DNA of 64,000 bases from NCBI GenBank assembly GCA_903884105.1, contig CAISDJ010000027.1, positions 604 to 64,603 on the forward strand, written 5' to 3'. The stretch comes from an uncultured Pseudomonadota bacterium (lineage in GTDB: Bacteria; Pseudomonadota; Gammaproteobacteria; Steroidobacterales; Steroidobacteraceae). Under the pieces are notes generated by a model. That model was given only the letters and a program-made list of their open reading frames with translations, had not been told where the DNA came from and made no database searches. The translations under genes were made by a program, and so were the position numbers. Shown here piece by piece: positions 9,012 to 35,801 of the stretch; position 1 is the stretch's first letter, and each line of letters begins with the position of its first letter.

Positions 9012-11009
9012 TTAGCCTGCCTTCAGGAGCGTTCCGAGCTCGGTATGCCCTAGGGCATCGGCAATGTCAGTTGCCGAGTTGCCATCGCTGTTGCGTAGCT
9101 GACGGTTGGCGCCTGCTGCGAGCAGCAACTTCACGATCGGAGTGTGACCGTTTCGTGTAGCGACAATCAGCGCCGTGTTGCCGAAGGCGCCGGTAGCGTT
9201 TGCAGTGGCACCTGCTGCCAACAGACGCTGTACCGTCGAGGCGTGGCCGTTTGCTGCAGCCAGCAGTAGCGGCGACACGCCGCCGCGTACGGCGGAGTTG
9301 GCGTTGACTCCATTGGTGAGCAACAAGGCGACGATTTCCGCCTGACCCTCGCTGGCCGCTGTTGCGAGCGGTGACACACCCTGCTTGTCCTCCTGGTTCC
9401 GGTTCTCCGGTCGGATCAACTGGCGGGCGGCCTCAATGAATCCGGTCTGCGCTGCGTACCACAATGCGGATCTGCCTTCGGCGTCAACCCGCGAAGGATC
9501 GCCGCGATGCTGCAGCAGGATGTCGACGAGGCTGAGCTGCCTCGAACGCGTCGCAATCATCAGGGCATCGCGACCCAGCTTGTCGCTAGCCCCGATATCG
9601 AACCCCGCATCGACCAGTGCCGTCAGAATCTCCGCTTGTTGCGCGCGAGCAGCCGCCAGTACCGGTGGCTCGACGCCATTCGCAGGCGCAGTCCTCGAGA
9701 CGGCTGGCAACAGCAATTGCACCATCTTGAGGTCGCCGTGGCGAATGGCCCAATCGAACCACTGCGGATCGATGGCTGCCGCACCAGCGCCGAGGCTGCG
9801 TACCAAAGGCAGCAACTTCTCTGCCGCGCTCACATTGCGTGACGTGACGGCGTTGCCGAGCGCCGTCCGCAGTTCCGTTGGCGTCCACGGCTCCGTTCGT
9901 CGTGTCGCAATCAGCGAGTTGAGCATGACGGTCGACGGGCGTGTGGCGGCCACGCCAAGGTCCGACCAGCCGGCGTACAGGTCTACTTTTGCTGCGCGAC
10001 GCAGCGGTACGGAGGGCGTTGAAGCTTCTTTCTTGGCGACAGTGGCCGTAATTCCGGCAGCGCGCAACGCCTGGATTGCCGGTATCGATTCGCCGCGCAG
10101 CGCCCAGTCCAGCGCAGTCCAGCCTTCGGTGTTCCGCGCGTTGAACTTCCGTGTGGCTGCCATTCCGCTGAGCAGTGACCTGATGTTGTCCACCCGCTCA
10201 CTCCGTGCTGCATACATGAGCGGAGTGTTGCCAACTGTATCTTGCGCATCGACGTTGGCGCCCGCCTTGACCAGGGCGGAGACAGACGACCCGCTTTCAG
10301 AAGCAGACGCGAGCATCAGGGCCGTGGTGCCAAACCGGTCCGCTCGCTTCGTGTCCGCTCGCTGGCGAAGCAATTCCTGGACCGCATTCCCCGCGCCGGC
10401 TTCAGCAGCGCGCATCAGCGCATCCCTGCCAAACTCGTTAGTGGCATTGGTCAACTCGGGACTGGCGAGGATTCCGAGCAGTGCGGCGTCATCACCATCC
10501 GCTGCCGACCAGAACGCGGCGAGTCTTGCTGAGGGCTCTTTCAGATCCGAAGCTGGCAGGAATTCAAGCGGTAAGCTGCCCCGCTTCAGCGAACGTGACG
10601 CGAGTTCATGGCCGGCCTGAGCGGCAGCCTCCAGCCAGCGCCGCGACGCCTGAACGTCGCGGGGTGCTTCTCGAAGGAAAGACAGGGCAAGGCTGTAGGA
10701 CGCGTTTGCGTGTTTTTGCTCGGCGGCAGCCAGCAGCAATGAACGTTCCCTGGTCACGTCGGCGGTCACGCCCAGACCTGCGCGATAGAGCGAAGCCAGC
10801 AAATATTGAGCATTGGCGTTGCCCTGCGCCGCAAGCGGCTCAAGTGAGCGCACGGCAATCTGGAAGTTCTTCAGTCGGATGGCCGCCAGCGCGGGCTCCA
10901 TGGCAGGCTGCGCTGTGTAGGGGCGCGCTGCAGTCTCCGCCGCGAAAGTAGGAGCGCAGCCCAACAGCCATACCAGCGTGCATGTACGGAGGCCGTTACG
11001 CAGTACCAT
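9012..11009 (-). CDS. Secreted Sel1-repeat plus ankyrin-repeat protein
   Basis: Signal-like N-terminus MVLRNGLRTCTLVWLLGCAPTFA. Sel1 motifs (GNANAQYLLASLYRAGLGV, ...SYSLALSF). Two blocks of ANK repeats (G.TALM.A...G....V..LL..GA..N). The ORF overlaps the 3' end of the upstream oxidoreductase gene. The start could be 11072 or 11009. Confidence 0.8.
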   Translation of the reverse strand: MVLRNGLRTCTLVWLLGCAPTFAAETAARPYTAQPAMEPALAAIRLKNFQIAVRSLEPLAAQGNANAQYLLASLYRAGLGVTADVTRERSLLLAAAEQKHANASYSLALSFLREAPRDVQASRRWLEAAAQAGHELASRSLKRGSLPLEFLPASDLKEPSARLAAFWSAADGDDAALLGILASPELTNATNEFGRDALMRAAEAGAGNAVQELLRQRADTKRADRFGTTALMLASASESGSSVSALVKAGANVDAQDTVGNTPLMYAARSERVDNIRSLLSGMAATRKFNARNTEGWTALDWALRGESIPAIQALRAAGITATVAKKEASTPSVPLRRAAKVDLYAGWSDLGVAATRPSTVMLNSLIATRRTEPWTPTELRTALGNAVTSRNVSAAEKLLPLVRSLGAGAAAIDPQWFDWAIRHGDLKMVQLLLPAVSRTAPANGVEPPVLAAARAQQAEILTALVDAGFDIGASDKLGRDALMIATRSRQLSLVDILLQHRGDPSRVDAEGRSALWYAAQTGFIEAARQLIRPENRNQEDKQGVSPLATAASEGQAEIVALLLTNGVNANSAVRGGVSPLLLAAANGHASTVQRLLAAGATANATGAFGNTALIVATRNGHTPIVKLLLAAGANRQLRNSDGNSATDIADALGHTELGTLLKAG

Positions 11010-12354
11010 ATTTGGTCTCCACCTCGACGCCAGCCTGGCGCAGGAAGTCATTGGGAAGGACGCCTCCTGCATTGACGATCACCGACTGATTCTCCACCTC
11101 GAACTTGTTGCCCTTATGGTCCAGCAGCACGCGGTCCGTCGCGATCTGCCTGACCGTTGAGCCAAGCCGCAAGTCGAGTTCGCCCGACTTTGCGGCAGCC
11201 GCAACGCGATCGCGGTTCCTGGGCTTGGCTCGATCAAAGGCATCGCCGCGATAAGATAGCGTAACCTGCGTTCCTCCCAGTTCGGCGATGCTCGCTGCTG
11301 CTTCCAGCGCGCTATCTCCGCCGCCAACCACCAGGACGTGCTGGCCCTTGTACTGCTCCGGATCGAGGAGGCGGTATACGACCTTCGGCAGGTCCTCGCC
11401 TGGGACTCCCAGCTTGCGCGGTGTGCCGCGACGGCCAATGGCGAGCAGCACATTCCTGGTGCGGTACTCACCCTTCGGGGTCTTGACAAGGAAGCCCTGT
11501 GCTCCCAGGTTCTGCACGCCTTCGACTCGTTCCTTGTAGTTGATCTGCACCCCCGATTTCTTCTCGATGCTCTGCCAGAACTCAAGCAGTTCCTCTTTCG
11601 TCGTGCGGGTGAAATTCACCTTGCCGACAATCGGCAGCGTGGCGGCCTGCGTCATGACGAGCTTGGCTCTGGGATACTGGAATACACAACCACCCAGCGA
11701 CTCTTGCTCCAGCGTAACAAAACGCAGGCGCTTGGACAGGGCGGAAAGCGACGCAGCGAAGCCCGCAGGGCCCGCGCCGACGATGACGAGATCCAGAAGA
11801 TCCGCGCCTCCGCGGGGGCGGTGCTTCTCGATCATTTCAACAACCTGTTTGCCCTGCTCGAGCGCGTTGCGGATCAGGCCCATGCCGCCAAGCTCGCCGG
11901 CCACAAAAATGCCTGGCACGTTGGTTTCAAAGTGCGGTGTCAACACCGGAATGTCGATGCCGCGCTTCTCGGTGCCGAATACGAGTGTGATGGCGCCCAC
12001 TGGGCAGGCGGTACGGCATGCGCCGTGGCCGATGCAGTCTGTTGGACTCACCAGCTCTGCCTTGCCATTGATGAGGCCAAGCACGTGGTGGTGAGGTTGC
12101 TCCGGACAGGCCGTCACGCACGAGCCGCAGCCGATGCAGAGCGAAGGATCGATGATCGGATGCAGAGACGGTGGCTCAATCAAGCCGGCGCTCAAGGATT
12201 CGAATTTCGCTTCTGCGCTCTTGCGCGCCGTGTGGGCGCGCTGCCGACCGAACCACAGCCACAGAAGCAGCATTGGCACGATGTAGATTGCGTATTCGAG
12301 CACACTCACTCCGAAAGTCTTGCTGAGGTCGTCGGTATCCATGCCTGCTGGCAC
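10996..12354 (-). CDS. Membrane-anchored 2x[4Fe-4S] ferredoxin-domain / FAD-NAD(P) pyridine nucleotide-disulfide-family oxidoreductase
   Basis: N-terminal TM helix YAIYIVPMLLLWLWFG. CIGCGSCVTACPE and CIGHGACRTACPVGAI cluster motifs. Dinucleotide folds VIVGAGPAGFAASL and VLVVGGGDSALEAA. Confidence 0.8.
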   Translation of the reverse strand: MPAGMDTDDLSKTFGVSVLEYAIYIVPMLLLWLWFGRQRAHTARKSAEAKFESLSAGLIEPPSLHPIIDPSLCIGCGSCVTACPEQPHHHVLGLINGKAELVSPTDCIGHGACRTACPVGAITLVFGTEKRGIDIPVLTPHFETNVPGIFVAGELGGMGLIRNALEQGKQVVEMIEKHRPRGGADLLDLVIVGAGPAGFAASLSALSKRLRFVTLEQESLGGCVFQYPRAKLVMTQAATLPIVGKVNFTRTTKEELLEFWQSIEKKSGVQINYKERVEGVQNLGAQGFLVKTPKGEYRTRNVLLAIGRRGTPRKLGVPGEDLPKVVYRLLDPEQYKGQHVLVVGGGDSALEAAASIAELGGTQVTLSYRGDAFDRAKPRNRDRVAAAAKSGELDLRLGSTVRQIATDRVLLDHKGNKFEVENQSVIVNAGGVLPNDFLRQAGVEVETKYGTA

Positions 12355-12832
12355 TACCGTATCGGTCGCTGGAATCCCGCCGAGCGATCTTGACTGCTGG
12401 TCATGTCGAACGTCGATACAGGACCCCGCGCCGACAGACTACAGGCAAAGCAAGGCTGCGGTCGCGAAGTCAGTAACAGTTTCAACACCGTCCGTAGCTA
12501 CCCAACGAAACGAGTTCGGCACGACGGAGCCACGCTGCCGTCCGCGTTGACCGAGAACGTCGGTGCGGCCCGAGTATCGGCGGAACAGTCTTAACTGATC
12601 CTTAAGATCCAGAGCGGCAGCGATGCGCAATGGCCAAATATGTTGGTGGTTGGCGACAGATGACCATTTTGTGAAGTGGTCGACACCTGTAACTGTCGTC
12701 GGGCCCAGACAAGTCACTAAATTTCCAGTGCGGAGCCGCCATGCTTCCCACTAAACTTCTACATAACAAGAACGATTGTCCCGATGCCTCGAAAGCAGGC
12801 CGGGAAACGGCGGATTTAGGGAGTTTCACTGC

Positions 12833-14086
12833 ATGTCATTGATGGCGACATTTTGGGTCATGGCCGGATTCGCGGCGGGCATTGCTGCCTGCTTCGTCCT
12901 GCTGCCGATTCTTCGTGGCCCTGCGGACGAGCCAGCCAAGAATGGCCGGCGGGTGTTGGTTGGCGCAGCGGCCGCGGTGGGACTGTTTGGCCTCGCCATC
13001 GCAATTTATCTGCAGTTAGGTCGGCCTGATTCACTGGACGCGAGCCTGGGAAGCGCTCCTCACGCCGGTGTTTCCTCTGGAGAGAGCGGGCAAGTGGGCT
13101 CGATGGAAGCGTCCATCCAGAAGCTTGCTGACAAGTTGGCAGCGGGCGGCGGCACCGATGCGGAATGGGATCTCTTGGCACAGTCCTATGAGTTCCTGGG
13201 GAACGCGGAGGCTGCAAGCGAGGCGAGGCAGCACAGGGTTCCAGGCGCAGTGCAGCCTGCGGCACAGCTGGTGAATGACCTCACTACCTATGAAGATAAA
13301 GTCGGGGTTGCGCCGAAGGACGTTGGGTCCTGGCTCGGGATGGCTGGGCTCAAGCGCACGCAACGTGACTTCGCGGGCGCCGTCGCAGCCTACGAAAAGG
13401 TGCGTGAACTCAAGGGTATGACGGCGGATTCATGGGCGGACTATGCAGATGCGCTGGCTTCCCAACCCGGCGGTTCGCTGCGAGGCAAGTCTGCAGAGGC
13501 GATAGAGCAGGCACTCAAGATGGATCGGAATCATCCCAAGGCCTTGTGGCTGAAGGCGACGCTCGCGATTCAGGAGAAGCGCTTCAGTGAGGCGACCCGC
13601 CTGTGGCGGCAACTGCGTGGCGTGTTGCCCGCCGACTCTCCTGACGTACGCATTATCGAGGCCAACATTGCGGAGGCCGAGGCCCTGGCGAAGGGTGGCA
13701 GTCCTGCGCAGGCTGCGGTGGCACCAGCGCCTGCTGTAGCCGTGCAGATTGAAGGTACAGTAGATCTGGATCCTGCCTTGCGATCCAAGGTCACTCAGGG
13801 TATGACGCTCTATATCTATGCGAAGGTGCCCAATGCGCCGGGTCCGCCGCTGGCTGTTTCACGGGTCGCCGCGGGTTCCTGGCCTGCGCGCTTCGTACTC
13901 GATGACACCCAGTCGATGTTGCCGGACCGTCGGCTGTCCGACTTCCCGCAGGTCATCATTGAAGCGCGGCTTTCAAAGAGCGGCCAGGCAATCGCAGCCG
14001 CAGGCGACCTGCAGGGGCGCAGCGGCACGGTCGACACACGGGCTGCCAGGCCCGTCAACCTGAAGATCGACCAGGTCATCGGCTAG
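12833..14086 (+). CDS. ccmI: CcmI/CycH-like c-type cytochrome biogenesis (apocytochrome chaperone) protein
   Basis: N-terminal TM helix MATFWVMAGFAAGIAACFVLLPILRG, TPR-like middle region and a CcmI-type C-terminal domain (LYIYAKVPNAPGPPLAVSRV...FVLDD). ATG at 12833; the TTG-12776 extension is unsupported. Confidence 0.72.
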   Translation: MSLMATFWVMAGFAAGIAACFVLLPILRGPADEPAKNGRRVLVGAAAAVGLFGLAIAIYLQLGRPDSLDASLGSAPHAGVSSGESGQVGSMEASIQKLADKLAAGGGTDAEWDLLAQSYEFLGNAEAASEARQHRVPGAVQPAAQLVNDLTTYEDKVGVAPKDVGSWLGMAGLKRTQRDFAGAVAAYEKVRELKGMTADSWADYADALASQPGGSLRGKSAEAIEQALKMDRNHPKALWLKATLAIQEKRFSEATRLWRQLRGVLPADSPDVRIIEANIAEAEALAKGGSPAQAAVAPAPAVAVQIEGTVDLDPALRSKVTQGMTLYIYAKVPNAPGPPLAVSRVAAGSWPARFVLDDTQSMLPDRRLSDFPQVIIEARLSKSGQAIAAAGDLQGRSGTVDTRAARPVNLKIDQVIG

Positions 14087-14093
14087 GCTCATC

Positions 14094-15050
14094 ATGCAAG
14101 TTTCACGGTACGATCTCGCCTCGCGCGGCGAAGCACTGACTCCTGATCCGGTTGGATCCTCCCCGGATGAACGGGTGGTGGCCAATCGACGCGGTGTCCA
14201 TGTCCGCTCTCGCTGGCAGCGGTGGATCACGTTCGACAGCGTGTTCCTGACAATCGCTGCCTTGGTCGTCCTTGTCGGCTGGCGGTTTCCCACGGAGCGA
14301 TTCATTTCGCCCGCCGCCGGGCTCGGCTATGCACTCGGGATCACGGGCGGCAGCCTGATGCTGATCCTGCTGCTCTATCCACTGCGCAAGCGGATCGCGT
14401 GGTTTTCGAAGTTGGGGTCAGTCAAGGCCTGGTTCCAGGTGCATATCGTTTTCGGCGTAGTAGGTCCGATCTGCGTGCTTTATCACTCCAACTTTTCGCT
14501 CGGTGCGACCAATAGCAACGTTGCGTTGGCGTTGATGCTCGTCATTCTCGGAAGCGGCCTGCTTGGGCGGTATTTCTACGCCAAGATTCACGATGGTCTG
14601 ACGGGCCACGAAACCAACTATGCGGACCTCAAGGCGAATGCAGAAAGGCTGCGGACCGTCACGCTGTCCGTCAAGTTCATGCCGGAGCTGCTGACTCGTC
14701 TCGCCAATGAGGAGAAGCACCTCGTGGAGAACGCGCAGCGGTGCCCGGCGCTATTGCGGCCTCTCTATCTGGCTTGGTGCAGCCTTCGGGGCAGGTTGCG
14801 GCTCAACAGGCACGTCCGCCTTGCGCTCACGGCAGCGGCGTCCCAGTCGCAACTGATCGATGCGCATCGGGATCGTCTGCAGGAAACGGCGTACGCATAC
14901 ATCGACAGGCGGATGTCCGCTACTCAAAGCGTCGCCGAATACCAGACCTATGCGAACTTGTTTTCGTGGTGGCATCTGCTCCACCTGCCGTTGTTCTTCC
15001 TGATGCTGGTTGCCGGCATCGTGCATGTGGTCGCCGTACACGCGTACTGA
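14094..15050 (+). CDS. Integral membrane protein, about 5 TM helices, His-rich (unknown family)
   Basis: Starts 7 nt after the ccmI-like gene. The TM helices contain histidines (WFQVHIVFGVVGPICVLYH; WWHLLHLPLFFLMLVAGIVHVVAVH). Confidence 0.6.
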   Translation: MQVSRYDLASRGEALTPDPVGSSPDERVVANRRGVHVRSRWQRWITFDSVFLTIAALVVLVGWRFPTERFISPAAGLGYALGITGGSLMLILLLYPLRKRIAWFSKLGSVKAWFQVHIVFGVVGPICVLYHSNFSLGATNSNVALALMLVILGSGLLGRYFYAKIHDGLTGHETNYADLKANAERLRTVTLSVKFMPELLTRLANEEKHLVENAQRCPALLRPLYLAWCSLRGRLRLNRHVRLALTAAASQSQLIDAHRDRLQETAYAYIDRRMSATQSVAEYQTYANLFSWWHLLHLPLFFLMLVAGIVHVVAVHAY

Positions 15051-15123
15051 CGCGGGGTGGTTCGATCATGAATGCAAGGACAGACGGTACAGCGCGGGCA
15101 ATGATTGCGGAGCAGTGGCGCTC

Positions 15124-16689
15124 GTGAGGGCAAGCTGGATCTACAGACTGGTGGGGGCCTTGGGAATGCTCGTTGGGGCAGTACAGGTTCATGCGGCTAG
15201 CCAGGCTCTCGAGCGTCTCTTGATGCCGGGACCGGTGTCTGCTGCCCATGCAAAGTATGAGACTGACTGCGCGCAGTGCCACGATTTCGCAAACCGGCCG
15301 GGCCAGGCCCAGTTATGCGCAACCTGTCATGAGCCGGTTCGAGACGACATTCGAGCGGGAAAGGGGTTGCATGGCCGCCTACCGAACGCCGCCATGCTGC
15401 AATGTCGCGGATGCCATACCGAGCACAAGGGGCGCGACACCGATATCGTCAAGTTTGTGGCGCTTGAGTTTGATCACTCGAAGACGGACTTCGAGCTGGC
15501 GGACGCGCATGCCACCGTGCCCTGCGCAAGCTGCCACCAAGCCGGAAAGCCCTATCGAGAGGCTGCGGGTCAGTGCAGCGGATGCCACCTGAAGGACGAG
15601 CCACATGAGGGTCGATTGGGTAAGGACTGCGCGAGCTGTCATGATTCTGTGGCATGGAGCCGGACTCGCTACGACCACGGCAAGACGAAGTTCCCACTGG
15701 AGAACAAGCACGCAGAAGTCCCTTGCGCTGCCTGCCACTTTGGCAATCGCTACGACGGGACTCCTCAGGCCTGCGCCTCATGCCACTCGCCGGATGATGT
15801 GCATCGCGGAGCCCGCGGTACCGACTGCGCGTCGTGCCATACCACCAAGGAATGGCAGACGGCGCGCTTCAACCACGAGAAGGAGACGGGCTTCGCCTTG
15901 CGGGGTGCACACGCAGACGCCGCCTGCGCGAGTTGCCACAAGACCGGTCGTTATGAAGACAAAGTGCCAAAGGACTGTCACGGATGCCATCTCGCCGAAG
16001 ACACCCATGCCGGCCGCCTTGGGGAGAAGTGCGGTGATTGCCACACGAATGATGCGTTCAAGCCAGCGAAGTTCGACCACGACAAGGATACCAAGTACCT
16101 CCTTGAGGGAGAGCACAAACAGGTTTCCTGCCACGCATGCCATACCGCTCCGGTCGCGCAGCAGTCGTTGCAGTCCAACTGCTCGTCCTGCCATGCGGCG
16201 AACGACGTTCATGCCGCAAAGCTCGGGACACAATGCGAGTCCTGTCATGCGCCGGCCGGGTGGCGCTTTGATGTCCGCTTCGACCATGACCTCAGTGATT
16301 TCCAGCTTCTCGGGCAGCACGCTGCGGTCCCCTGCGAGCAGTGCCATCTGACACAGTCATTCAAGGATACGGCGTCCGGGTGCAACGACTGTCACGCGAA
16401 GACTGACGTCCACAAAGGCAGTCTTGGCAAGGAATGCGCCAGCTGCCATTCCCCGAACGGATGGGGGATCTGGGAGTTTGATCATGGCAAGCAGACCGGG
16501 TTTGGCCTGACCGGCGCGCACGGGAAGCTCACGTGCGCAGGTTGCCATCGCCAGCCGCCAGATGTCGTCAAGCTGTCACAGGACTGTGTGGCGTGCCACC
16601 AGGACGATGACGCTCACTTCGGTGATTTCGGACGGCAGTGCGAGCGCTGCCACGTCACCCTGTCATTCAAGCAAGTGCGTATCCGTTAG
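15124..16689 (+). CDS. Multihaem c-type cytochrome, 21 CXXCH motifs (seven c7-like trihaem modules)
   Basis: I counted 21 CXXCH motifs by eye. The GTG at 15124 gives a Sec-type signal, VRASWIYRLVGALGMLVGAVQVHAAS. The upstream part of ORF 15010 overlaps the preceding gene. Confidence 0.9.
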   Translation: MRASWIYRLVGALGMLVGAVQVHAASQALERLLMPGPVSAAHAKYETDCAQCHDFANRPGQAQLCATCHEPVRDDIRAGKGLHGRLPNAAMLQCRGCHTEHKGRDTDIVKFVALEFDHSKTDFELADAHATVPCASCHQAGKPYREAAGQCSGCHLKDEPHEGRLGKDCASCHDSVAWSRTRYDHGKTKFPLENKHAEVPCAACHFGNRYDGTPQACASCHSPDDVHRGARGTDCASCHTTKEWQTARFNHEKETGFALRGAHADAACASCHKTGRYEDKVPKDCHGCHLAEDTHAGRLGEKCGDCHTNDAFKPAKFDHDKDTKYLLEGEHKQVSCHACHTAPVAQQSLQSNCSSCHAANDVHAAKLGTQCESCHAPAGWRFDVRFDHDLSDFQLLGQHAAVPCEQCHLTQSFKDTASGCNDCHAKTDVHKGSLGKECASCHSPNGWGIWEFDHGKQTGFGLTGAHGKLTCAGCHRQPPDVVKLSQDCVACHQDDDAHFGDFGRQCERCHVTLSFKQVRIR

Positions 16690-16697
16690 AGGCAGTC

Positions 16698-19586
16698 ATG
16701 AAAGTCCTAACACGCTTGCTTTCTTTCCTGACGGCGCCGGGCTATCCGATGTTCGCTGTACTGTGCCTGATGCTGGGCAGCGTTTTCTTTTCTGGAGTGG
16801 AAGCACAGGTTGCGGCGCCCGGTCGAGTCGCTGCCTCGTTCGATCATCTCAGCACCGGTTTCGAGCTGACGGGTGCCCACCTTCAGGTGCGATGCGAGTC
16901 CTGCCACGTCGACGGCGTTTTCAAGGGGACCCAGGCGAACTGCGCCGCGTGCCATACGCCGGGCACGAGAGTGGGCGCGACGAGCAAGCCGTCGAATCAC
17001 ATCCTGACGACGGAACGTTGCGCGGATTGCCATACGACTGTTGCCTGGAATACCGCCGAGCGTTTCGATCACTCCCAGGTCATTGGGTCTTGCAGCAACT
17101 GCCACAATAACGTTCAAGTGGTTGGCAAGCCGGCGAACCACATTCCCACGAATCTGGACTGCAATTCGTGCCACAACGTCGGTTCGTGGGCGGTTGTGCG
17201 GTTCGATCACACCGGCGTAGTCGGCAATTGCGCCAGTTGCCACAACGGAACCCGCGCTACCGGCAAGGAAGCGAACCATATTCCGGTCGGCGATGATTGC
17301 GAGACTTGTCATACGCCAAGTGGCTGGCGCCCGGCAACGTTCAGCCACGTTGGCGTCACTGGCAATTGTGCAAGCTGTCATGACGGCGTACGCAGCACCG
17401 GCAAGGATCGCGCGCATATCCAGTCCAGCATGGTCTGCGAATCGTGCCATGTTCCGACTGCCTGGGCCCCCGTCACTCGTGTCGACCACACGCAGGTTCT
17501 CGGCAGCTGCGTTGTCTGTCACAACGGGACCAGCGTCACTTCAAGTGGCGTCAGGATCACCGGGAAGCCCGGTGATCACATTCGCTCAACCGATACCTGC
17601 GATGCTTGCCACGGCACGATGGTCTGGAGACCGGCAACGCGGGTGGACCATGCCAACGTCACTGGCAGTTGTGCGTCGTGCCATAACGGTACCGCTGCGA
17701 CCGGCAAGACGTTGGGTGTCCATATCGCATCTACGGACGCGTGTGAGACCTGTCATGGAACCACCGTCTGGCAACCCACTTCGCGCGTCGATCACAACCA
17801 GCTCGTTTCCGCGAACTGCGCCACCTGTCATGCACGCCCGATTGGTATCGGTGCCGTGCAGGCAACGGTCAAATCCGCTACCCACGTCGCCAGCGACAAC
17901 CAGTGCGCAACCTGTCATTCAACGCTGAGCTGGCGTCCTGCGAGTTTCGCTCACACTGGTATCACGAGCGGCTGCGCCAGCTGCCACAACAATGTGACCG
18001 CGACCGGCAAGTCAGGCGGCCACATCAATTCGACGGCGATCTGCGAGTCATGTCACGTGTCCACCTCCGTGTGGGCGCCGGTTGCGCCTGCACAGGTCAA
18101 TCACACGCAGGTCATTGGGTCTTGCAATACCTGCCATAACGGTTCAGTGAGAACTTCTTCAGGGACCCCGATCCAGGGCAAAGGGACGGGCCATATCCTG
18201 TCGACCGCCTCCTGTGATGCCTGCCACGCCATCGGATCATGGACGCCGACAGTGCGGGTCGACCACGGGCAGGTGCTCGGAAGCTGCTTTACGTGTCACA
18301 ACGGTTCGACACGGACTTCCGCAGGCGCATTGATTACCGGCAAGTCGCTCACCCACATTCAGAGTTCCAATGCCTGCGAGAACTGCCATTCGCCCAGTTC
18401 CTGGGCGACCAACGGCCGTCCGGACCACAGTACTTTCATCGGCAACTGCGCCACCTGCCACGGTGTATCGGCTTCGGGGAAGGGTCTCAATCACATCCAG
18501 TCAACCGTTGCCTGCGATAACTGCCATACGGTCTCTTCGTGGCTGCCGGCAGAGGCGGTCGATCACACGCAAGTGCTTGGAACCTGCACGAGCTGCCACA
18601 GCGGCTCGGTTCACACGAACTCGGGTGCGTTGATCCAGGGCAAGGGGACGAGCCACATAACAACCGCCCTGGAGTGCGACTCGTGCCACACGACCTCCAC
18701 TTGGGTTGTCGCGAGATTCGATCACACGAAGACCGCGCTGTCCTGCTTCTCGTGCCACGACAATACGCATGTGGCAGGCAAGACCGCCTCGCACATCACG
18801 ACCACGAACGCCTGCGAGACCTGCCACGTGAGCACGGCGTGGAAACCCGCCACCCGTGTTGACCATACCCAGGTGACGGGAACCTGCTTCTCATGCCACA
18901 ACGGATCGACTGCACGCGGCAAGTCGCAAACGCATATCGCGTCCGACAACACCTGCAGTACCTGCCACACGACGGTGGCATGGACCCCGGCCCAGTTCGA
19001 TCATCGCAATGTGGTTGCGGGGACTTGCGGTACCTGTCACAACGGCGTGAGTGCGACTGGCAAGCCGAACAATCACCTGCCGACAACGCAGTCCTGCGAC
19101 GCATGCCATGTCACGCTGGCATGGAAGCCGGCCACCTTCAGTCATGCCGGCATTACGACAGGCTGCAGCTCGTGCCACAACAACACGGTGACGGCAGGCA
19201 AGTCGACCAGACACATGACCACGTCCCGCGAATGCGTTATCTGCCACTCGACCACTGCGTGGACTCCTTTGACGTTCAGGCACACATCGACGGAGTACCC
19301 GGGTGACCACCGCGTTGCGTTGACCTGTACCGCCTCCGGGTGTCATTCGACCAACACGGATGCTGCCGTATGGCGAACCCCGTCATTGCGGGGCTCCTGT
19401 GCCGGGTGCCACTCAGGCAACTTCAAGGCGGGCAGTCACCCGAAAGTCAGCGGCGTGTCCAACTACACGGCGAGCGAGCTTCGAAATTGTTCGGGCGCTT
19501 GCCACACGTACACGAATGCGACGTTGACGACGATTTCCAAGACCCGGAATGGCCCACAGCACCGGGTAACGAGCAACGGCTTCTGA
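16698..19586 (+). CDS. Giant multihaem c-type cytochrome, 34 CXXCH plus two variant motifs (about 963 aa)
   Basis: ATG at 16698 lies 8 nt after the upstream stop and has a GAGG SD. Hydrophobic signal ...MFAVLCLMLGSVFFSGVEAQ. I counted 34 canonical CXXCH motifs plus CTASGCH and CSGACH. Confidence 0.9.
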   Translation: MKVLTRLLSFLTAPGYPMFAVLCLMLGSVFFSGVEAQVAAPGRVAASFDHLSTGFELTGAHLQVRCESCHVDGVFKGTQANCAACHTPGTRVGATSKPSNHILTTERCADCHTTVAWNTAERFDHSQVIGSCSNCHNNVQVVGKPANHIPTNLDCNSCHNVGSWAVVRFDHTGVVGNCASCHNGTRATGKEANHIPVGDDCETCHTPSGWRPATFSHVGVTGNCASCHDGVRSTGKDRAHIQSSMVCESCHVPTAWAPVTRVDHTQVLGSCVVCHNGTSVTSSGVRITGKPGDHIRSTDTCDACHGTMVWRPATRVDHANVTGSCASCHNGTAATGKTLGVHIASTDACETCHGTTVWQPTSRVDHNQLVSANCATCHARPIGIGAVQATVKSATHVASDNQCATCHSTLSWRPASFAHTGITSGCASCHNNVTATGKSGGHINSTAICESCHVSTSVWAPVAPAQVNHTQVIGSCNTCHNGSVRTSSGTPIQGKGTGHILSTASCDACHAIGSWTPTVRVDHGQVLGSCFTCHNGSTRTSAGALITGKSLTHIQSSNACENCHSPSSWATNGRPDHSTFIGNCATCHGVSASGKGLNHIQSTVACDNCHTVSSWLPAEAVDHTQVLGTCTSCHSGSVHTNSGALIQGKGTSHITTALECDSCHTTSTWVVARFDHTKTALSCFSCHDNTHVAGKTASHITTTNACETCHVSTAWKPATRVDHTQVTGTCFSCHNGSTARGKSQTHIASDNTCSTCHTTVAWTPAQFDHRNVVAGTCGTCHNGVSATGKPNNHLPTTQSCDACHVTLAWKPATFSHAGITTGCSSCHNNTVTAGKSTRHMTTSRECVICHSTTAWTPLTFRHTSTEYPGDHRVALTCTASGCHSTNTDAAVWRTPSLRGSCAGCHSGNFKAGSHPKVSGVSNYTASELRNCSGACHTYTNATLTTISKTRNGPQHRVTSNGF

Positions 19587-21970
19587 TGCGCAGAGGAGTA
19601 CTGAAGGCGCTGGTCGGGTGGTTGGGGTTGGGTCTGCTATCCCAGCCCGCGTCAGCCCAGTTTGCTCCGCGGTTGCTCGAAGCAGCAGATATCACGACGG
19701 CTGACACCCACCTGGATGTCGTATTGTTGTTCAGCTGCCAAGTCCGCTATTTGTCACACTTGCCGGCAGCCGAGAGCAATGTCGTCGACGTTCGGCTGGG
19801 TGTGGGCACTGATTGCCTCCAGGGCGGGAGCATCATCGGCAGCGAATCGCTGACGCCCCCCGCCGGGCAAGACGTCCTCAAGTCGATCGAGTTGATCCCC
19901 TTGCTCGCGAGCGACGTGGACCTGCGGATTACCTGGGGCACGCGGGAGCGCTACCTGATCGCTCCGACCTCTGATCAACGTGGGCTGCGGATCCGGGTGC
20001 TGCGGGACGAGCGGGGTGTGGATCGCAGCAGGGTATTGATTACCGAGCCCGAGGGCACGCTGGCTTCCGGCTACGCCATCAACCTCGAGTCGGCGACCGA
20101 ACCCTTCACGCCTGCCGCTGCAGCCGATGTGCAGCGTATCCTTGGCCAGGCAAGCTATGTTTCGAAGGTGGAGATCGAAAGTCAGACTTGGTATCGAATG
20201 CGCATCGGTCCATTCGCCACGCGTGCGGAGGCCGACAGGCAGCTGTTGCGTGCTCAGCAAGCGTATCCGCGAGCCTGGTTGGGGATCGCAGATGAGGTTC
20301 TGCACGAGGACGACGTCGTTACCACGACTACGACGGATGACATTCCCTCAGGTTCCGGACTCGTGCCTCCAACGGGTTTGTTTGCGATCGCACAGGCGCA
20401 GCTCAGGCGGCGCCAGTACGACGCGGCGATTGCTTCTTTCACAAGGTATCTCGTGGACGCGACGGGGGATACGCGAGGGACGGCTCGCGAGATGTTGGGT
20501 CTCGCCCAGGAGCGAAGCGGGCACCTTGCATTGGCCAAGGCCGAATATGAAGCCTACCTGCGTGAATTTCGCTCGGGTCGTGGGGCGGACCGTGTGCGAC
20601 GCCGCCTCAATGCGTTGCGGACGGCATCGGGCGCCAACCGGTCGCAGGAGGGTACCGGCGTTGATGAAGAACTCGCCTGGCGCTATTTCGGCGGCGTGTC
20701 GCAGTACTACAGATACGACGATAATCTCCGTACGATCGGCCCCCTCGAGGCGAAGTTCTCCAGCCAGAACGCGCTGCTGACCGATGCCGACTTCGTTGCC
20801 CGCAAGCGGGGCGAGTCGTTTGATTCGCTGGCGCGCTTCAATGGTGGCTACATCAAGGACATGTTGACCAAGGGTCCTGGGGACAGCTTCCGCCTCAGCA
20901 GCGCCTACTACGAAATGAGCGATGTGGAGCGGGGTTGGATGGCCCGCTTCGGTCGGCAGGCGCGCAGCAGCGACGGCATTCTCGGCACATTCGACGGCGC
21001 ATTGGGCAGCTACCGCCTTCAGCCCCATCTCACGTTCAATCTGGCAGCGGGGTTCCCCATCGAGTCCACCCGCAGCGGATTCAACAGCGACCGCCAGTTC
21101 CAGTCGCTCGCCGCCAATTTCGGTGTTCTGAGCGGTGGCTGGGAGCCATCCCTGTATGTGATCAACCAGACGTATCTCGGGGAGACGGATCGCCAGGCCG
21201 TGGGGGCGGAATTGCGGTACTTCAAGCCCGGACGAACCCTCATCGGTTTCGTCGATTACGACCAGCATTTCGGCGAGATGAACAACGTGATCGTGGTGGG
21301 TACGGTGCAGTTGCCAGCAATGTGGACGATGACGCTGGATGTCGAGCAGCGCAGGACGCCGATGCTCATGACCCGAAATGCGTTGATCGGGCAGGCCGTG
21401 CAGACGCTGGATCAATTGCTGGATCTGTTCACGAGCGAAGAGGTCAGGCAGCTGGCTCTCGACCGCACGGCGCCGTCCAGGTTGGCGAGCTTTTCGCTGT
21501 CGAGGCCCCTTGGCCAGCGTTTTCAGTTCGCACTGTATGCTGCGTCGACGGACATGGGCGCTACGCTGCCATCCGGAGGCGCCGAGGGCATTCCGGACCC
21601 GGGCGGTGACCTCTCACTGTCGGCGCAACTTCTGGCCATGAGCCTGTTCCAATCCGGCGATATCAACATCATGGCGGTTCGTTACCAGACGAATGATTTC
21701 GCCAAGACCGCCTCGATTGGCATCAGTTCACGATTGCCGCTCTATGGGGCCTGGCGGATTGGTCCGCAGCTGCGATTGGACCGCCGCGAGAATATCGCGG
21801 ATCAGTCGGTCCAGATGCTGCTGGCGCCGACGTTGCGACTCGGGCTCCAGCTCAAGAAGGTCATTTTCGAGCTTGAAGCCGGAGCCGAGCTGACGAATCG
21901 CACGGGATTCCCGGACGATGACAAGACGCGCCGCTATTTTTTCAGCCTGGGCTATCGATGGAACTTCTGA
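19586..21970 (+). CDS. Outer-membrane-type beta-barrel protein with N-terminal AMIN-like, SPOR and TPR regions
   Basis: TGATG overlap with the cytochrome gene. Signal MRRGVLKALVGWLGLGLLSQPASAQ. SPOR-like segment GYAINLES...WYRMRIGPFATRAEADRQLLRAQQAYPRAW. The C-terminal half (about 450 aa) has an alternating pattern and ends ...YFFSLGYRWNF, an OMP-type terminal Phe. Confidence 0.68.
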   Translation: MRRGVLKALVGWLGLGLLSQPASAQFAPRLLEAADITTADTHLDVVLLFSCQVRYLSHLPAAESNVVDVRLGVGTDCLQGGSIIGSESLTPPAGQDVLKSIELIPLLASDVDLRITWGTRERYLIAPTSDQRGLRIRVLRDERGVDRSRVLITEPEGTLASGYAINLESATEPFTPAAAADVQRILGQASYVSKVEIESQTWYRMRIGPFATRAEADRQLLRAQQAYPRAWLGIADEVLHEDDVVTTTTTDDIPSGSGLVPPTGLFAIAQAQLRRRQYDAAIASFTRYLVDATGDTRGTAREMLGLAQERSGHLALAKAEYEAYLREFRSGRGADRVRRRLNALRTASGANRSQEGTGVDEELAWRYFGGVSQYYRYDDNLRTIGPLEAKFSSQNALLTDADFVARKRGESFDSLARFNGGYIKDMLTKGPGDSFRLSSAYYEMSDVERGWMARFGRQARSSDGILGTFDGALGSYRLQPHLTFNLAAGFPIESTRSGFNSDRQFQSLAANFGVLSGGWEPSLYVINQTYLGETDRQAVGAELRYFKPGRTLIGFVDYDQHFGEMNNVIVVGTVQLPAMWTMTLDVEQRRTPMLMTRNALIGQAVQTLDQLLDLFTSEEVRQLALDRTAPSRLASFSLSRPLGQRFQFALYAASTDMGATLPSGGAEGIPDPGGDLSLSAQLLAMSLFQSGDINIMAVRYQTNDFAKTASIGISSRLPLYGAWRIGPQLRLDRRENIADQSVQMLLAPTLRLGLQLKKVIFELEAGAELTNRTGFPDDDKTRRYFFSLGYRWNF

Positions 21971-22611
21971 GACTCCCTGCCCGTAGCGGTCCGGGTTCGA
22001 GGCTGGCGCTGTGGGCCCTCCTGCTTGTTGCGACCTGCTTGCCGCAGTCCGGCTGCGTCGCTGTGCGCGCCGGTGCGCGTCAATACCAGGACGAAAGCAC
22101 CGCGGTCACGATCACTGTCGCGACGGATCCCGTGGTGCTGGCCAGGGAAGTGTCGATGCTCGCGGTCAATGCGCGTGACTATGTCAGCTTGTTCCCGCTG
22201 GAGGTGAATCGCTCCGGTCAGCGTCGCTACTACTTCTATGGCTACAGCTGGTCCACCATTGATCGACGCCAGACCCCAGGAGCGACAGTCCCGAGTGACG
22301 ATGAGTTGACCCTGCAGGCGGACGACAGAACGGTTGTGCTGCGGATGTCTTCGCGGGAGCTGCAGAATGCCGGGTTGCGTACTTTGCCCGTAGCGCCTCC
22401 TGCCTCTGGTGCGCGGCCGCTGTTGTTTCCCACGGATCGCGCCACGCTGCTGTTCGTGGGGACGGCCCGCGCCTTGTCCGCGCAGTTCGCGGCGACGTCC
22501 GGCGCTGCTTCCGTGGAACAGTTTCGGCAGTGGAGCGCTCCCGAACCCGGATTCAAGGGATTCTTCGAGCGGATAGGATCTGCGCAGCCGACCCGAACGC
22601 CATCAAGGTAG
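21958..22611 (+). CDS. Hypothetical lipoprotein
   Basis: 13-nt overlap with the barrel gene. Signal plus lipobox ...LWALLLVATCLPQSGC. No family was recognised. Confidence 0.55.
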   Translation: MELLRLPARSGPGSRLALWALLLVATCLPQSGCVAVRAGARQYQDESTAVTITVATDPVVLAREVSMLAVNARDYVSLFPLEVNRSGQRRYYFYGYSWSTIDRRQTPGATVPSDDELTLQADDRTVVLRMSSRELQNAGLRTLPVAPPASGARPLLFPTDRATLLFVGTARALSAQFAATSGAASVEQFRQWSAPEPGFKGFFERIGSAQPTRTPSR

Positions 22612-23346
22612 ACGAGACATCGCCTCTGCAGGCTTGATGCCGGCTGTCTGCTGTGCGAGCCGCCGGGTCAGTGCTCGCAATACATCGGCGATCCATTCCC
22701 GTTCCGCTTTGGTCACCCGCCGCGTCGACTTCCATGTCGTGATCTTCTCTGCGCCGCTGCGTCGCCCCCAGGGACTCGTAATCTCCGCAAGCTTGTGCAG
22801 CACGTCCAGGTTCGCGTTCAGCGCGTCTGCAGCCGTCTTTCGATCAACGAAACGACGCTCCAACAGGCCGATCGCTGCCCGTCCGGCCGGGATCAGCCGA
22901 CGCGGCTCACGCAGCAGACGCGCGTATTCCTCGGCCAGAAACAGGACGTCACCGTCCGCAATCATGTCGTGTGGCGCGGCGGGGTAGCTGGTATGGATGA
23001 GCTGCGCCGCTGAAGCAGTGCAGTCTGCATCGGCCATATGGGCGCACGGTTCGGCTGGCTCGCGGCCTGCGACGACAGTATGGATATGCGTCAGTTGAAA
23101 TGCGCCTGGTCCAAGGGAGAGCAGCGCGTGCACGTTCCAGCCGGCGATCAGTGGATCGAGCAGCGCGTGGGCAGCGGCTTCAGTGGCAAGGTCTCTTGTT
23201 GGAGTCAACGTCGCGATGCGGGCCTTAATCCAATACGAAAAGGAGCCGAGCGTCCCGACGGAGGTCACCTTGGGGTCGAAGTCTTCACCGTCGGCGCTCT
23301 CAACCCGGTAGCAGAGGCGAACAACTCGGGTGTTCAGTTCGTTCAT
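22603..23346 (-). CDS. Hypothetical protein (no recognisable domain)
   Basis: A 247-aa ORF with ordinary, non-shadow amino-acid composition. It is convergent with the cytochrome operon. Confidence 0.45.
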   Translation of the reverse strand: MNELNTRVVRLCYRVESADGEDFDPKVTSVGTLGSFSYWIKARIATLTPTRDLATEAAAHALLDPLIAGWNVHALLSLGPGAFQLTHIHTVVAGREPAEPCAHMADADCTASAAQLIHTSYPAAPHDMIADGDVLFLAEEYARLLREPRRLIPAGRAAIGLLERRFVDRKTAADALNANLDVLHKLAEITSPWGRRSGAEKITTWKSTRRVTKAEREWIADVLRALTRRLAQQTAGIKPAEAMSRLP

Positions 23347-23484
23347 GGCGTGGCTTCACCTGCGTGCGCAGCACGTGGGTGGTCCCTCGGGCCTGGCGGC
23401 GTTGATTGTTCTTGTCGTCCACCCTGTTGGACGGCGCCGAGGCGTCAATCAATCGGGTCCCGCCTGGGACCGCCCTCGGGGAGT

Positions 23485-24357
23485 TCATCGGGTTGCTGCG
23501 GCCGGTTCCCTGGAGTGCCACATCAGGTACAGGCCGCTTGCGACGATCAACGATCCGCCTGCCAACATTCGGGAGCCGGGAAGGACGCTCCACCCGAACC
23601 AGTCCAGCGCGATGCCCCAAAGGAGGGCGGTGTATTCAAAGGGGGCGACGACCGACGCAGGTGCCAGCCGGAAGGCTTGCGTAATGAAGTGCTGCCCCGC
23701 CGCCCCCGCGATCCCGAGGCCGAGGATCCACCCCCCCTCTTCGAGCCTCACGGGCGTCCAGGTCGTGATGCTGGCGAGGCCAGCCACCACCGCAATCACC
23801 GCCATTGTCCAGAACACCATGCTCGCCGTCGTGTCTGTCCTCGACAGCACACTGATCGAAATGGCGCTGAGCGCATAGAAGACGGCCGCCATGAATGCGC
23901 CAAGCCCCCCCAGCGTGACCATGCCCGCAGCCGTTGGCCGCAGCATGACGATGACGCCGACCAATCCCACGGAGATGGCGCACCAACGACGCCAGCTGAC
24001 GCGCTCACCCAGGAAAGGCACCGAAAGCGCGGTGATCAACAACGGCGCTGACAGATAGAGGGTGTAGGCGTCAGCCAGCGAAAGCTCGCGCACGGCGAAT
24101 ACGAAAGACCACAGAAGCCCGATTGACAGGAGTCCCCGCAGCAGATGGAGGGGCCAGCGGATCGGTCGTATGTCTTTGAGCCGGCGGGAAATGCCAAGTA
24201 CCAGCAGGACGATTGGCAGAGATGCGATGCCCCTGAGAAAAGTGACCTGCATCGGGCCATGCAGCTGCCCGAGGTGCTTCATGGCGGCATCCATCAGCGC
24301 GAAGCTGCCCACCGCCGCGATCATCATCAGAATGCCTCGGGTTGCGGGGTGCGACAT
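23485..24357 (-). CDS. DMT-superfamily (EamA-like) transporter
   Basis: About ten TM helices and two EamA-type halves. The ATG at 24357 (MSHPATRGILMMIAAVGSFALMDA) is preferred. Confidence 0.8.
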   Translation of the reverse strand: MSHPATRGILMMIAAVGSFALMDAAMKHLGQLHGPMQVTFLRGIASLPIVLLVLGISRRLKDIRPIRWPLHLLRGLLSIGLLWSFVFAVRELSLADAYTLYLSAPLLITALSVPFLGERVSWRRWCAISVGLVGVIVMLRPTAAGMVTLGGLGAFMAAVFYALSAISISVLSRTDTTASMVFWTMAVIAVVAGLASITTWTPVRLEEGGWILGLGIAGAAGQHFITQAFRLAPASVVAPFEYTALLWGIALDWFGWSVLPGSRMLAGGSLIVASGLYLMWHSREPAAATR

Positions 24358-24523
24358 TAGGCGCAGCAGTCTGCCAGCGGGGCTTCGGATTTGCCAACGC
24401 GTCAACAAGTGCCGGCGGGCAATTCCTTTCAGGCCAGTACCGCATCGGACCGCCGCGGGCGATAATCAGCACCAAGGCACTCAGCCCACTCAAGCCACTC
24501 AAGCCGCAAGGTGTTCATCCGTC

Positions 24524-25726
24524 ATGAATGAAGCGTATATCTGCGATGCCATCCGCACCCCCATCGGCCGTTACGGCGGCAGCCTCGCTACCATTCGCGC
24601 GGACGATCTGGCGGCGGTGTCCATCAAGGCACTCATGGAGCGCAATCCGGGCGTCGATTGGGCGGCAGTGGACGAGGTGTACCTGGGTTGTGCCAACCAG
24701 GCCGGCGAAGACAACCGCAATGTGGCCCGGATGGGTCTGCTGCTGGCAGGTCTGCCCGACAGCGTCCCGGGCGGCACGCTCAACCGGCTGTGCGGGTCGG
24801 GTCTCGATGCCGTGGCGATCGCGGCGCGGACGCTGAAGACCGGCGAAGCTGATCTCATCATCGCGGGTGGCGTCGAGAGCATGACTCGCGCGCCGTTTGT
24901 CATGGGCAAGGCCGATGCGGCTTGGGCGCGTGGTCAGAAGATCGAAGATACGACAATGGGCTGGCGCTTCATCAACCCGGCGCTCAAGAAACTTCACGGC
25001 GTCGACACGATGCCGGAGACTGCCGAGAACCTCGTGACGGAGTTCGGCATTTCAAGGACCGATCAGGACGCCTTTGCGCTGCGCAGCCAGCAACGGTATG
25101 CGAAGTCGAGCGCACTCGGCTTTTTTGTGAAGGAACTGATCTCTGTATCGATTCCGCAGGCGAAGGGAGATCCCAGGGTGTTCGCGGCTGACGAGCATCC
25201 CCGCGAAACGACGATGGAGGCGCTGGCAAAGCTCAAGGGCGTCGTGAGGCCGGACGGTTCCGTAACTGCGGGCAACGCATCCGGGATCAACGACGGCAGT
25301 TGTGCGCTACTCGTTGCAAGTGAGGCTGGTGTCAAAAAGCACGGTCTGCGGGTTCGCGCGCGCGTAGTAGCTGCGGCCACTGCAGGCGTTCCTCCGAGAG
25401 TCATGGGAATCGGTCCAGTACCGGCCACGCGCAAGGTGCTTGCGAAAGCGGGGCTCACGCTCGAGCAGATGGACGTGATCGAACTCAACGAAGCGTTCGC
25501 TTCGCAGGCTCTCTCCGTGATGCGGCAGCTCGGCCTGGCGGATGACGCTGCTCACGTGAATCCCAATGGCGGCGCGATTGCGCTTGGTCATCCATTGGGT
25601 GCGAGCGGCGCCCGCCTCGTGACGACGGCGATCAATCAGCTCGAAGCGATGGGTGGTCGATACGCGCTCTGCACGATGTGCATCGGTGTGGGTCAGGGTA
25701 TCGCGATGATCATTGAACGGATCTAG
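24524..25726 (+). CDS. pcaF: 3-oxoadipyl-CoA / acetyl-CoA C-acyltransferase (PcaF/PaaJ-type thiolase)
   Basis: MNEAYICDAIRTPIGRYGG, NRLCGSGLDA (active-site Cys), GVESMTRAPFVMGK, NPNGGAIALGHPLGASG, CIGVGQG. The ORF part upstream of 24524 is spurious. Confidence 0.88.
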   Translation: MNEAYICDAIRTPIGRYGGSLATIRADDLAAVSIKALMERNPGVDWAAVDEVYLGCANQAGEDNRNVARMGLLLAGLPDSVPGGTLNRLCGSGLDAVAIAARTLKTGEADLIIAGGVESMTRAPFVMGKADAAWARGQKIEDTTMGWRFINPALKKLHGVDTMPETAENLVTEFGISRTDQDAFALRSQQRYAKSSALGFFVKELISVSIPQAKGDPRVFAADEHPRETTMEALAKLKGVVRPDGSVTAGNASGINDGSCALLVASEAGVKKHGLRVRARVVAAATAGVPPRVMGIGPVPATRKVLAKAGLTLEQMDVIELNEAFASQALSVMRQLGLADDAAHVNPNGGAIALGHPLGASGARLVTTAINQLEAMGGRYALCTMCIGVGQGIAMIIERI

Positions 25727-25783
25727 ACAATGACCTATAAGTAGGGCGTCTGGACCGGGAAGATCAAGGAACGCCGCCCGACG

Positions 25784-26401: not shown

Positions 26402-26521
26402 GTTTGCCGTCGCTGCGGGCTAGCGCCGCCGAGAATAGTCGGAGCAAGCAAACGGCTGCGGTCCGTCCCTGCCTCGCAGCCCGTCCGGATGACGCACCCA
26501 AGCTGTGGACAGTAGCTCTCG

Positions 26522-26549
26522 TTTCCACGGTTATGATGGCGCGTGGAAA
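26522..26549. promoter_or_regulatory. Inverted repeat TTTCCACG-N12-CGTGGAAA upstream of the VOC gene (candidate operator)
   Basis: Perfect 8-bp arms read directly from the sequence. The site ends about 35 nt upstream of the ATG at 26585, before the GAGGAGA SD. Confidence 0.3.
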
Positions 26550-26584
26550 ATCGCGGGCCGGCGTTTCGGTGAGGAGACAGGTAC

Positions 26585-27136: not shown

Positions 27137-27149
27137 CGGCCCAGCCGCA

Positions 27150-35793: not shown

Positions 35794-35801
35794 GGGGTGT
35801 C

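Follow-up and report, generated by a model that had tools for sequence, protein, structure and literature searches.

Clusters of the PCC3 type are the closest described counterparts of the locus reported here. They were defined bioinformatically by He, Barco, Emerson and Roden (2017, Front Microbiol 8:1584, PMC5566968) and comprise a porin, two cytochromes (an "extracellular" one, median 34 haems, and a periplasmic one, median 21 haems) and an inner-membrane protein of ~300 amino acids (aa) with five transmembrane (TM) helices, an SGXXG motif on TM4 and WX3HX13H motifs on TM3 and TM5. The published criteria place the periplasmic cytochrome at 21-27 haems and the large cytochrome at ~26-30 aa per haem with a composition rich in Thr, Ser, Ala and Gly; repeat periods of ~66 aa in the periplasmic cytochrome and ~47 aa in the large cytochrome of Leptothrix cholodnii were reported as well (PMC5566968). 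Versions with 10-35 haems occur in Gallionellaceae, and AlphaFold models of PCC3 cytochromes were described as "long and mostly linear" (Hoover et al. 2023, mSystems 8:e00038-23, PMC10734462). In Sideroxydans CL21, PCC3 expression lies above the mean, and since the clusters are found in iron oxidisers, the literature favours a role in Fe(II) oxidation. Here, we analyzed a 64,000-nucleotide stretch of DNA from an uncultured bacterium (contig CAISDJ010000027.1, positions 604 to 64,603; hereafter the window), in which the open reading frame (ORF) at 16698-19586 on the + strand encodes a 962-aa protein with 36 haem-attachment motifs.

We consider it probable that this ORF is the large "extracellular" cytochrome of a PCC3-type cluster in a Steroidobacteraceae-like gammaproteobacterium, the PCC3 references having been compared by their published description only. 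The PCC3 family is already known and experimentally uncharacterised; what is new is the Steroidobacteraceae member. This family of bacteria appears neither in the text of He et al. 2017 nor in its text-form supplementary files, and our literature search on Steroidobacteraceae and multihaem cytochromes returned no relevant report.

The gene cluster and its relation to described systems

The window holds the four-gene core of PCC3 in the same relative order:

14094..15050, + strand: inner-membrane protein of PCC3 type, 318 aa, with five hydrophobic segments, two WX3HX13H motifs and SGLLG
15124..16689, + strand: periplasmic 21-haem cytochrome c with seven triheme (c7-like) repeats
16698..19586, + strand: large multihaem cytochrome c of probable PCC3 type, 962 aa, with 34 CXXCH, one CX4CH and one CX3CH motif
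19586..21970, + strand: outer-membrane beta-barrel protein, 794 aa, its ATG overlapping the cytochrome stop (TGATG)

Each product agrees with the published description of its counterpart. The two WX3HX13H motifs of the inner-membrane protein start at aa 113 (WFQVH..H) and aa 293 (WHLLH..H), with SGLLG at aa 154. The 21 CXXCH motifs of the periplasmic cytochrome are spaced 17/18/33 residues apart, giving the seven triheme repeats a period of 66-68 aa; its start is uncertain (GTG 15115, 15124 or 15151, TTG 15160 or ATG 15166), and its stop lies 8 nucleotides (nt) before the 36-haem gene. The mature 36-haem protein has 25.7 aa per haem and is rich in Thr (14%), Ser (11%), Ala (9.5%) and Gly (8.7%). 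The barrel protein ends in ...YRWNF, with a terminal Phe. In its AlphaFold model (predicted local distance difference test, pLDDT, 80), a signal peptide is followed by a beta-sandwich, a SPOR-like domain, TPR helices and, at the C-terminus, a barrel of ~22-24 strands, which in Foldseek matched ushers and porins (E=1e-10 to 1e-7), with likeness to AlgE, Occ porins and PelB-type exporters. The gene overlaps and 8-nt gaps indicate that the + strand genes form one operon in which the cytochrome is translationally coupled. Scans for promoters and terminators over 12200-23500 gave no signal beyond that expected from shuffled sequence.

Indirect support for PCC3 membership came from component-by-component homology to a Ferribacterium limneticum cluster and six metagenomic loci. 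These seven related loci (L003, L004, which is F. limneticum CP075190, and L005-L009) make eight with the window. In all seven, the inner-membrane protein (33-51% identity, with both motifs) and the large cytochrome (31-45% identity, 38-62 haems) have homologues. A gene also occupies the barrel position in each; its product is 25-39% identical to the window barrel in six and shows no significant similarity to it in L006. The periplasmic cytochrome, with 21 or 24 haems, was called in six of the seven (40-52% identity), L007 having a 2-kb gap at this position with no gene called. A first reading of the DNA, made from the letters and their translations (the sequence-only reading), had not linked the gene to PCC3. 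Treating the ORF as a new kind of protein was rejected, as the operon shows every architectural hallmark of PCC3.

The locus also departs from PCC3 as described. Its host is a Steroidobacteraceae-like, probably heterotrophic bacterium; its barrel has ~22-24 strands in the AlphaFold model, next to SPOR-like and TPR domains, where PRED-TMBB had earlier predicted "up to 42"; and the window and the seven related loci carry a gene for an iron-sulfur (Fe-S), flavin adenine dinucleotide (FAD) and nicotinamide adenine dinucleotide (phosphate) (NAD(P)H) protein, joined in seven of the eight loci by one for a CcmI-like chaperone.

The same logic, a periplasmic multihaem cytochrome, a barrel and a surface cytochrome, underlies MtrCAB and MtoAB of Shewanella and Sideroxydans, and the MtrA/DmsE and MtrC haem domains show a weak haem-packing-motif similarity to the window cluster. 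The latter differs, however, in carrying 21 + 36 haems as opposed to 10 + 10, in having no lipoprotein anchor, in the extra periplasmic domains of its barrel, and in a putative b-type inner-membrane partner where those systems use CymA or ImoA.

Haem modules and location of the 36-haem cytochrome

The ORF runs from ATG 16698, preceded 6 nt upstream by a GAGG Shine-Dalgarno sequence immediately past the stop of the preceding gene, to a stop codon at 19584-19586. Its product is laid out as follows:

16698..16805, + strand: Sec (signal peptidase I, SPase I) signal peptide, aa 1-36, predicted cleavage between VEA and Q, no lipobox
16806..17018, + strand: N-terminal lead-in, aa 37-107, with haems 1-2 in a degenerate module (motif 'FDHLSTGFELTGAH..C..CH')
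17019..19232, + strand: 15 regular di-haem modules, aa 108-845, haems 3-32 (invariant C-C-H-W-H-C-C-H-K-H)
19233..19583, + strand: C-terminal non-repeat part, aa 846-962, with the half module of haem 33, CTASGCH, CAGCH and CSGACH

The 36 haem-attachment sites consist of 34 CXXCH motifs, CTASGCH (CX4CH, aa 877, nt 19326-19346) and CSGACH (CX3CH, aa 931, nt 19488-19505), exactly as the sequence-only reading had counted them. Such a number is far from random: in 2000 trials, residue-shuffled versions of the protein averaged 0.4 CXXCH motifs and never had more than 4. Neighbouring motifs lie 22-30 aa apart. When the protein is cut at each CXXCH, units of ~23 aa appear that belong to two types in strict alternation, 'CxxCH...W......(D/S)H' and 'CxxCH(N)G..(A)TGK...H(I)'. 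Together they build the 15 regular modules, each of 46-57 aa, with ten invariant positions (C1, C4, H5, W10, H18, C25, C28, H29, K37 and H41), and the self-similarity of the protein peaks at lags of 46, 54, 100, 93, 47 and 23. With haems 1-2 as a degenerate first module and haem 33 as a half module, the earlier figure of about 17 modules was a fair one. The lead-in motif resembles the triheme repeat of the adjoining 21-haem cytochrome. The last ~117 aa depart from the repeat, as had been noted for roughly the last 120, and form a distinct three-haem domain after the half module, which contains both variant motifs and ends in a conserved tail (...GPQHRVTSNGF).

Two extra His residues per module had been proposed as distal ligands compatible with bis-His coordination throughout, and both, H18 and H41, proved invariant in the 15-module alignment. 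The protein contains 75 His residues, 39 of them outside the motifs; 37 of the latter are at conserved positions (2 in the lead-in, 32 in the modules and 3 in the tail), and the extra His residues are kept across an alignment of 71 homologues. With 37 such residues for 36 haems and only six Met, all-bis-His ligation would be arithmetically possible.

The leader reads as an ordinary Sec signal, probably cleaved after aa 36. Its sole Cys (C23) stands in the context AVL-C, with Leu at position -1, so there is no lipobox, which agrees with the earlier view that the protein is not an MtrC-type lipoprotein. The signal-peptide layout is the same in the closest complete orthologue (L001, see below), and the 36-haem protein is accordingly predicted to be Sec-exported and non-lipidated.

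Several points weigh against assigning the protein to PCC3 and placing it outside the cell. The reference proteins (Slit_0867-0870 and Slit_1446-1449 of Sideroxydans lithotrophicus ES-1, and those of L. cholodnii SP-6) were matched by architecture, not by sequence. PCC3 was called "functionally unverified" as of 2025, no complex having been purified or genetically tested, and the extracellular location of the large cytochrome and trans-envelope electron transfer are predictions in the literature too. The leader is of the ordinary Sec type, and neither the operon nor the annotated genes of the window include one for a secretion system. The homologous large cytochrome was never detected in the proteomes of strain ES-1, in which the other subunits were. 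Structure prediction did not help either: the AlphaFold2 model of the 36-haem protein (71-sequence alignment) is of low confidence (pLDDT 63, predicted template-modelling score 0.26; best region aa 890-950, pLDDT 75-83), Foldseek matched this weak model to no solved structure (best E 8.9, OcwA), and the model therefore adds no structural proof of linearity or haem stacking.

Some of these points would fit a 36-haem protein that stays in the periplasm as an electron store (capacitor) or buffer, leaving the barrel another role such as polymer export, as in TPR-barrel exporters. The plain Sec signal, the missing lipobox, an operon without secretion genes and the ES-1 proteomes would all be in keeping with that; the SPOR-like and TPR domains of the barrel protein and its near structural matches (AlgE, PelB-type exporters and ushers) point the same way, and haem capacitance has already been proposed for PCC3 in the literature. 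The operon, however, has a 21-haem periplasmic cytochrome already. The barrel start overlaps the cytochrome stop, and the adjacency of the two genes is kept across Gamma- and Betaproteobacteria, while a linear 36-haem rod would be longer than the periplasm is wide. Periplasmic storage is thus unlikely in our view, and we favour the large "extracellular" cytochrome of a PCC3-type cluster.

Family resemblance, orthologues and module number

The domain models matching the 36-haem protein belong to multihaem families only: Cytochrome_C7 (12 stretches), c3, the MtrC/MtrF haem domain (102 bits), Paired_CXXCH and the DmsE/MtrA-type decahaem model (142 bits summed over five partial stretches). Partial matches of this kind could mean that the protein is an elongated MtrC/OmcA surface decahaem, an MtrA/DmsE periplasmic decahaem or a Geobacter c7-polymer "nanowire" of the GSU1996 type, but this is very improbable. 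The profile search suggested by the sequence-only reading brought no score up to a curated NCBIfam cut-off, MtrCAB-type families included: 142 against 192 bits for DmsE/MtrA (TIGR03508), 36 against 209 for OmcA/MtrC (TIGR03507) and 29.8 against 40 for nanowire_3heme (TIGR04257, GSU1996-like). DmsE/MtrA decahaems are proteins of ~300-350 aa; with the cut-off of TIGR03508 as the test, the DmsE/MtrA match, judged at the sequence level, is a motif-level resemblance only. The protein has no lipobox, and its repeat unit is di-haem, neither triheme nor pentahaem. A sequence search of the Protein Data Bank (PDB) with the whole protein gave no match, and the di-haem module profile gave CXXCH-level noise only (best E 2e-4, photosynthetic reaction-centre cytochromes).

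The likeness to the polymerised and GSU1996-type cytochromes of Geobacter would be one of principle, namely long close-packed chains of bis-His haems that spend very little protein on each haem and have been proposed as nanowires. The 36-haem protein differs from OmcS/OmcZ polymers and from triheme c7 proteins in that its length comes from di-haem repeats within a single polypeptide, and no solved structure significantly matches it.

The coding repeats had been described as near-identical, as a likely hotspot for module gain and loss, and as a place where the assembly might have collapsed or expanded. Near-identity did not hold: Tandem Repeats Finder reported no repeats over 15000-22000, the best DNA repeat copies within the gene found by a repeat finder are 60-79% identical over no more than 90 nt, and module-to-module protein identity averages 49% with a maximum of 68%. 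At the sequence level, the di-haem modules are old and diverged.

The closest genomes found, from which the host lineage follows, are the Steroidobacteraceae metagenome-assembled genome L001, whose barrel protein is 93% identical, and the uncultured proteobacterium L002 (89%). The complete L001 orthologue of the 36-haem protein has 962 aa, the same 34+2 motifs, 88.4% identity and no gap. Two partial orthologues also align without a gap, the one from L002 over 553 aa and the one on the metagenomic fragment P0002 over 684 aa, and the three are 87-88% identical to the window protein. Because all three align without gaps and the DNA repeats are diverged, collapse or expansion during assembly is very unlikely. 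The L002 contig ends inside the large cytochrome gene (L002 1-1687), and P0002, the closest metagenomic copy, is also truncated; short-read assemblies thus tend to break in this gene despite the divergence of its repeats. That the array is an assembly artefact, or the gene a decaying one with no functional protein, is hardly credible: repetitive genes do break short-read assemblies, as the ends of L002 and P0002 illustrate, but repeats this diverged leave little to collapse, the L001 orthologue has the same length, the truncated ones show no gap where covered, the frame is intact with all 36 motifs and distal His residues conserved, and neither the Shine-Dalgarno sequence nor the translational coupling is disrupted.

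The expectation of module gain and loss was borne out in part. It fails for the gap-free orthologues at 87-88% identity, and it holds at ~53% identity, where four proteins with the same C-terminal tail (P0003-P0006) carry 42-46(+2) haems and are set apart from the window protein by insertions of either 45-60 aa (one or two CXXCH motifs, mostly two) or 102-105 aa (four CXXCH motifs). Read from these alignments, whole-module gain and loss is real only over a long time scale, module number being stable among close relatives.

CXXCH counts range from 23 to 69 in the top 120 homologues of the 36-haem protein. The 47-position profile of the di-haem module matched 2037 representative proteins at E <=1e-3 among 1.84 billion cluster representatives, and the newly returned proteins in the best 150 of these 2037 have a median of 30 CXXCH motifs (range 9-131). 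The window protein is mid-sized within its family. The largest matches, going by CXXCH counts alone, are P0268 (129 in 3274 aa), P0269 (131 in 3592 aa) and P0319 (120 in 3949 aa). He et al. 2017 (PMC5566968) gave 85 haems as the maximum, which all three well exceed. The di-haem module architecture hence scales to ~130 haems in one polypeptide.

Accessory genes and the proposed electron route

Three further genes adjoin the four-gene core in the window:

10996..12354, - strand: membrane-anchored 4Fe-4S/FAD/NAD(P)H protein with a ferredoxin domain, GAGPAG (FAD) and GGGDSA (NAD(P)H), divergent from the operon
12776..14086, + strand: CcmI/CycH-like cytochrome c maturation chaperone with two N-terminal TM segments, TPR and Ig_CycH, first gene of the operon
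21958..22611, + strand: conserved 217-aa protein, possible lipoprotein, overlapping the barrel gene by 13 nt

Counterparts of the first two were located in the related loci at the following positions:

Fe-S/FAD/NAD(P)H protein gene: L003 956-2263, L004 3731-5029, L005 4785-6083, L006 2318-3691, L007 4471-5766, L008 14-1315, L009 4531-5883
CcmI/CycH-like gene: L003 2461-3759, L004 16436-17659, L007 16432-17466, L008 6161-7426

The Fe-S/FAD/NAD(P)H protein, with its GGG[D/N]SA motif, is encoded within a few genes of the cytochromes in all eight loci and is the most conserved component of the cluster (54-67% identity). Its gene is in most loci divergent from, and directly adjoining, the gene of the inner-membrane protein. 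A CcmI-like gene lies inside or beside the cluster in seven of the eight (the window itself and six related loci), which suggests a dedicated maturation of giant apocytochromes; its true start in the window is probably ATG 12830. The text of He et al. 2017 (PMC5566968) mentions neither the Fe-S/FAD protein nor the CcmI-like chaperone. The 217-aa protein has a hydrophobic leader with Cys residues and homologues at the same position in L001, L003 and L008, and no family matched it in the domain-model scan.

Several neighbouring genes fall outside the cluster. Downstream lie two + strand ORFs, one of 117 aa at 22634-22987 and one of 337 aa at 23038-24051, both rich in Arg and Pro and without a family match. 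They look like wrong-frame artefacts of high-GC DNA and were left out of the cluster; the real genes are probably on the opposite (-) strand, e.g., at 22603-23346, which has a 247-aa counterpart in L002. A 686-aa ankyrin-repeat protein with five Ank_2 stretches is encoded at 9012-11072 on the - strand, directly downstream of the Fe-S/FAD gene and on the same strand. Such a gene is atypical of bacteria, and its conservation does not extend to the other loci inspected. A second c-type haem locus, unrelated to the cluster, is found at 34630-37205 on the - strand, where a DUF1513 protein adjoins a di-haem oxidoreductase (DHOR family, two CXXCH). The region 24170-31628 encodes a 3-oxoadipyl-CoA thiolase, a glutathione S-transferase (GST), a glyoxalase-type dioxygenase, fumarylacetoacetase, homogentisate 1,2-dioxygenase and an aromatic-ring hydroxylase; these aromatic-catabolism genes make a heterotrophic host likely, rather than a lithotrophic iron oxidiser.

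Both WX3HX13H motifs and the SGXXG of the inner-membrane protein are kept in 120 of the 120 homologues listed, and the four His residues are invariant in a 41-sequence alignment. By the positive-inside rule, the N-terminus, loop 2 and the ~125-aa loop 4 should be cytoplasmic, with one His pair near each membrane face. The 318-aa protein is a putative di-haem-b transmembrane electron carrier. Pfam searches at E up to 10 and a profile search of the PDB returned coiled-coil noise and an insignificant DUF4405 match, and the likeness to ferric reductases consequently lies in motifs and topology only. With NOX/FRE oxidases and MsrQ/YedZ as the comparison, it consists of two His pairs 13 residues apart on two helices, as in the ferric reductase domain, a parallel noted by He et al. 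(PMC5566968). A flavin/NAD(P)H module is also genetically coupled to the window's inner-membrane protein, as in the NOX/FRE family, whereas here the flavoprotein is a separate polypeptide of the TrxR/YpdA type with an Fe-S domain.

We propose that the Ccm system, aided by the dedicated CcmI-like protein, matures the exported 36-haem protein. Its 36 haems, all bis-His, would stack in one continuous chain, an arrangement extrapolated from MtrCAB and OmcS; if linear and spaced like MtrA and OmcS, at ~0.8-0.9 nm for each haem, the chain would measure ~30 nm. The protein would be retained by the 22-24-strand barrel and not by a lipid anchor, project from the cell surface, and make contact with the periplasmic 21-haem cytochrome either inside the barrel or beneath it. 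The adjacent genes for the 21-haem cytochrome, the inner-membrane protein and the barrel thus offer a way in which an unanchored cytochrome could stay at the surface. The assembly would carry electrons between the inner membrane and redox partners outside the cell that are insoluble or distant (such as Fe/Mn minerals, humics or other cells), in the direction of either uptake or export; a host that looks like an aromatic-degrading heterotroph and the conserved NAD(P)H/FAD/Fe-S partner both suggest export.

A more speculative and, on balance, doubtful extension is that PCC3 in this lineage forms a quinone-independent, NOX-like trans-envelope chain. The Fe-S/FAD/NAD(P)H protein would then dock on the ~125-aa cytoplasmic loop of the di-haem-b protein, and reducing equivalents from the cytoplasm would reach extracellular acceptors by way of two b haems, the 21-haem rod in the periplasm and the 36-haem rod at the surface. 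Such a system would amount to a "split NADPH oxidase" on a 57-haem cable with its own CcmI-type chaperone. Were this chain real, PCC3 would in heterotrophs be primarily a system of electron export for redox balancing and not an Fe(II) oxidase.

Few known electron-transfer proteins are as extreme as the giant single-chain multihaem cytochromes, of which no PCC3 representative has been characterised. The compact 36-haem form described here, with its stable module number and its tight, complete operon, could be tractable for expression and structure work. The Fe-S/FAD protein found in all eight loci and the CcmI-like protein found in seven provide testable ideas on how electrons may enter these systems and how a protein with 36 haem sites may be matured.

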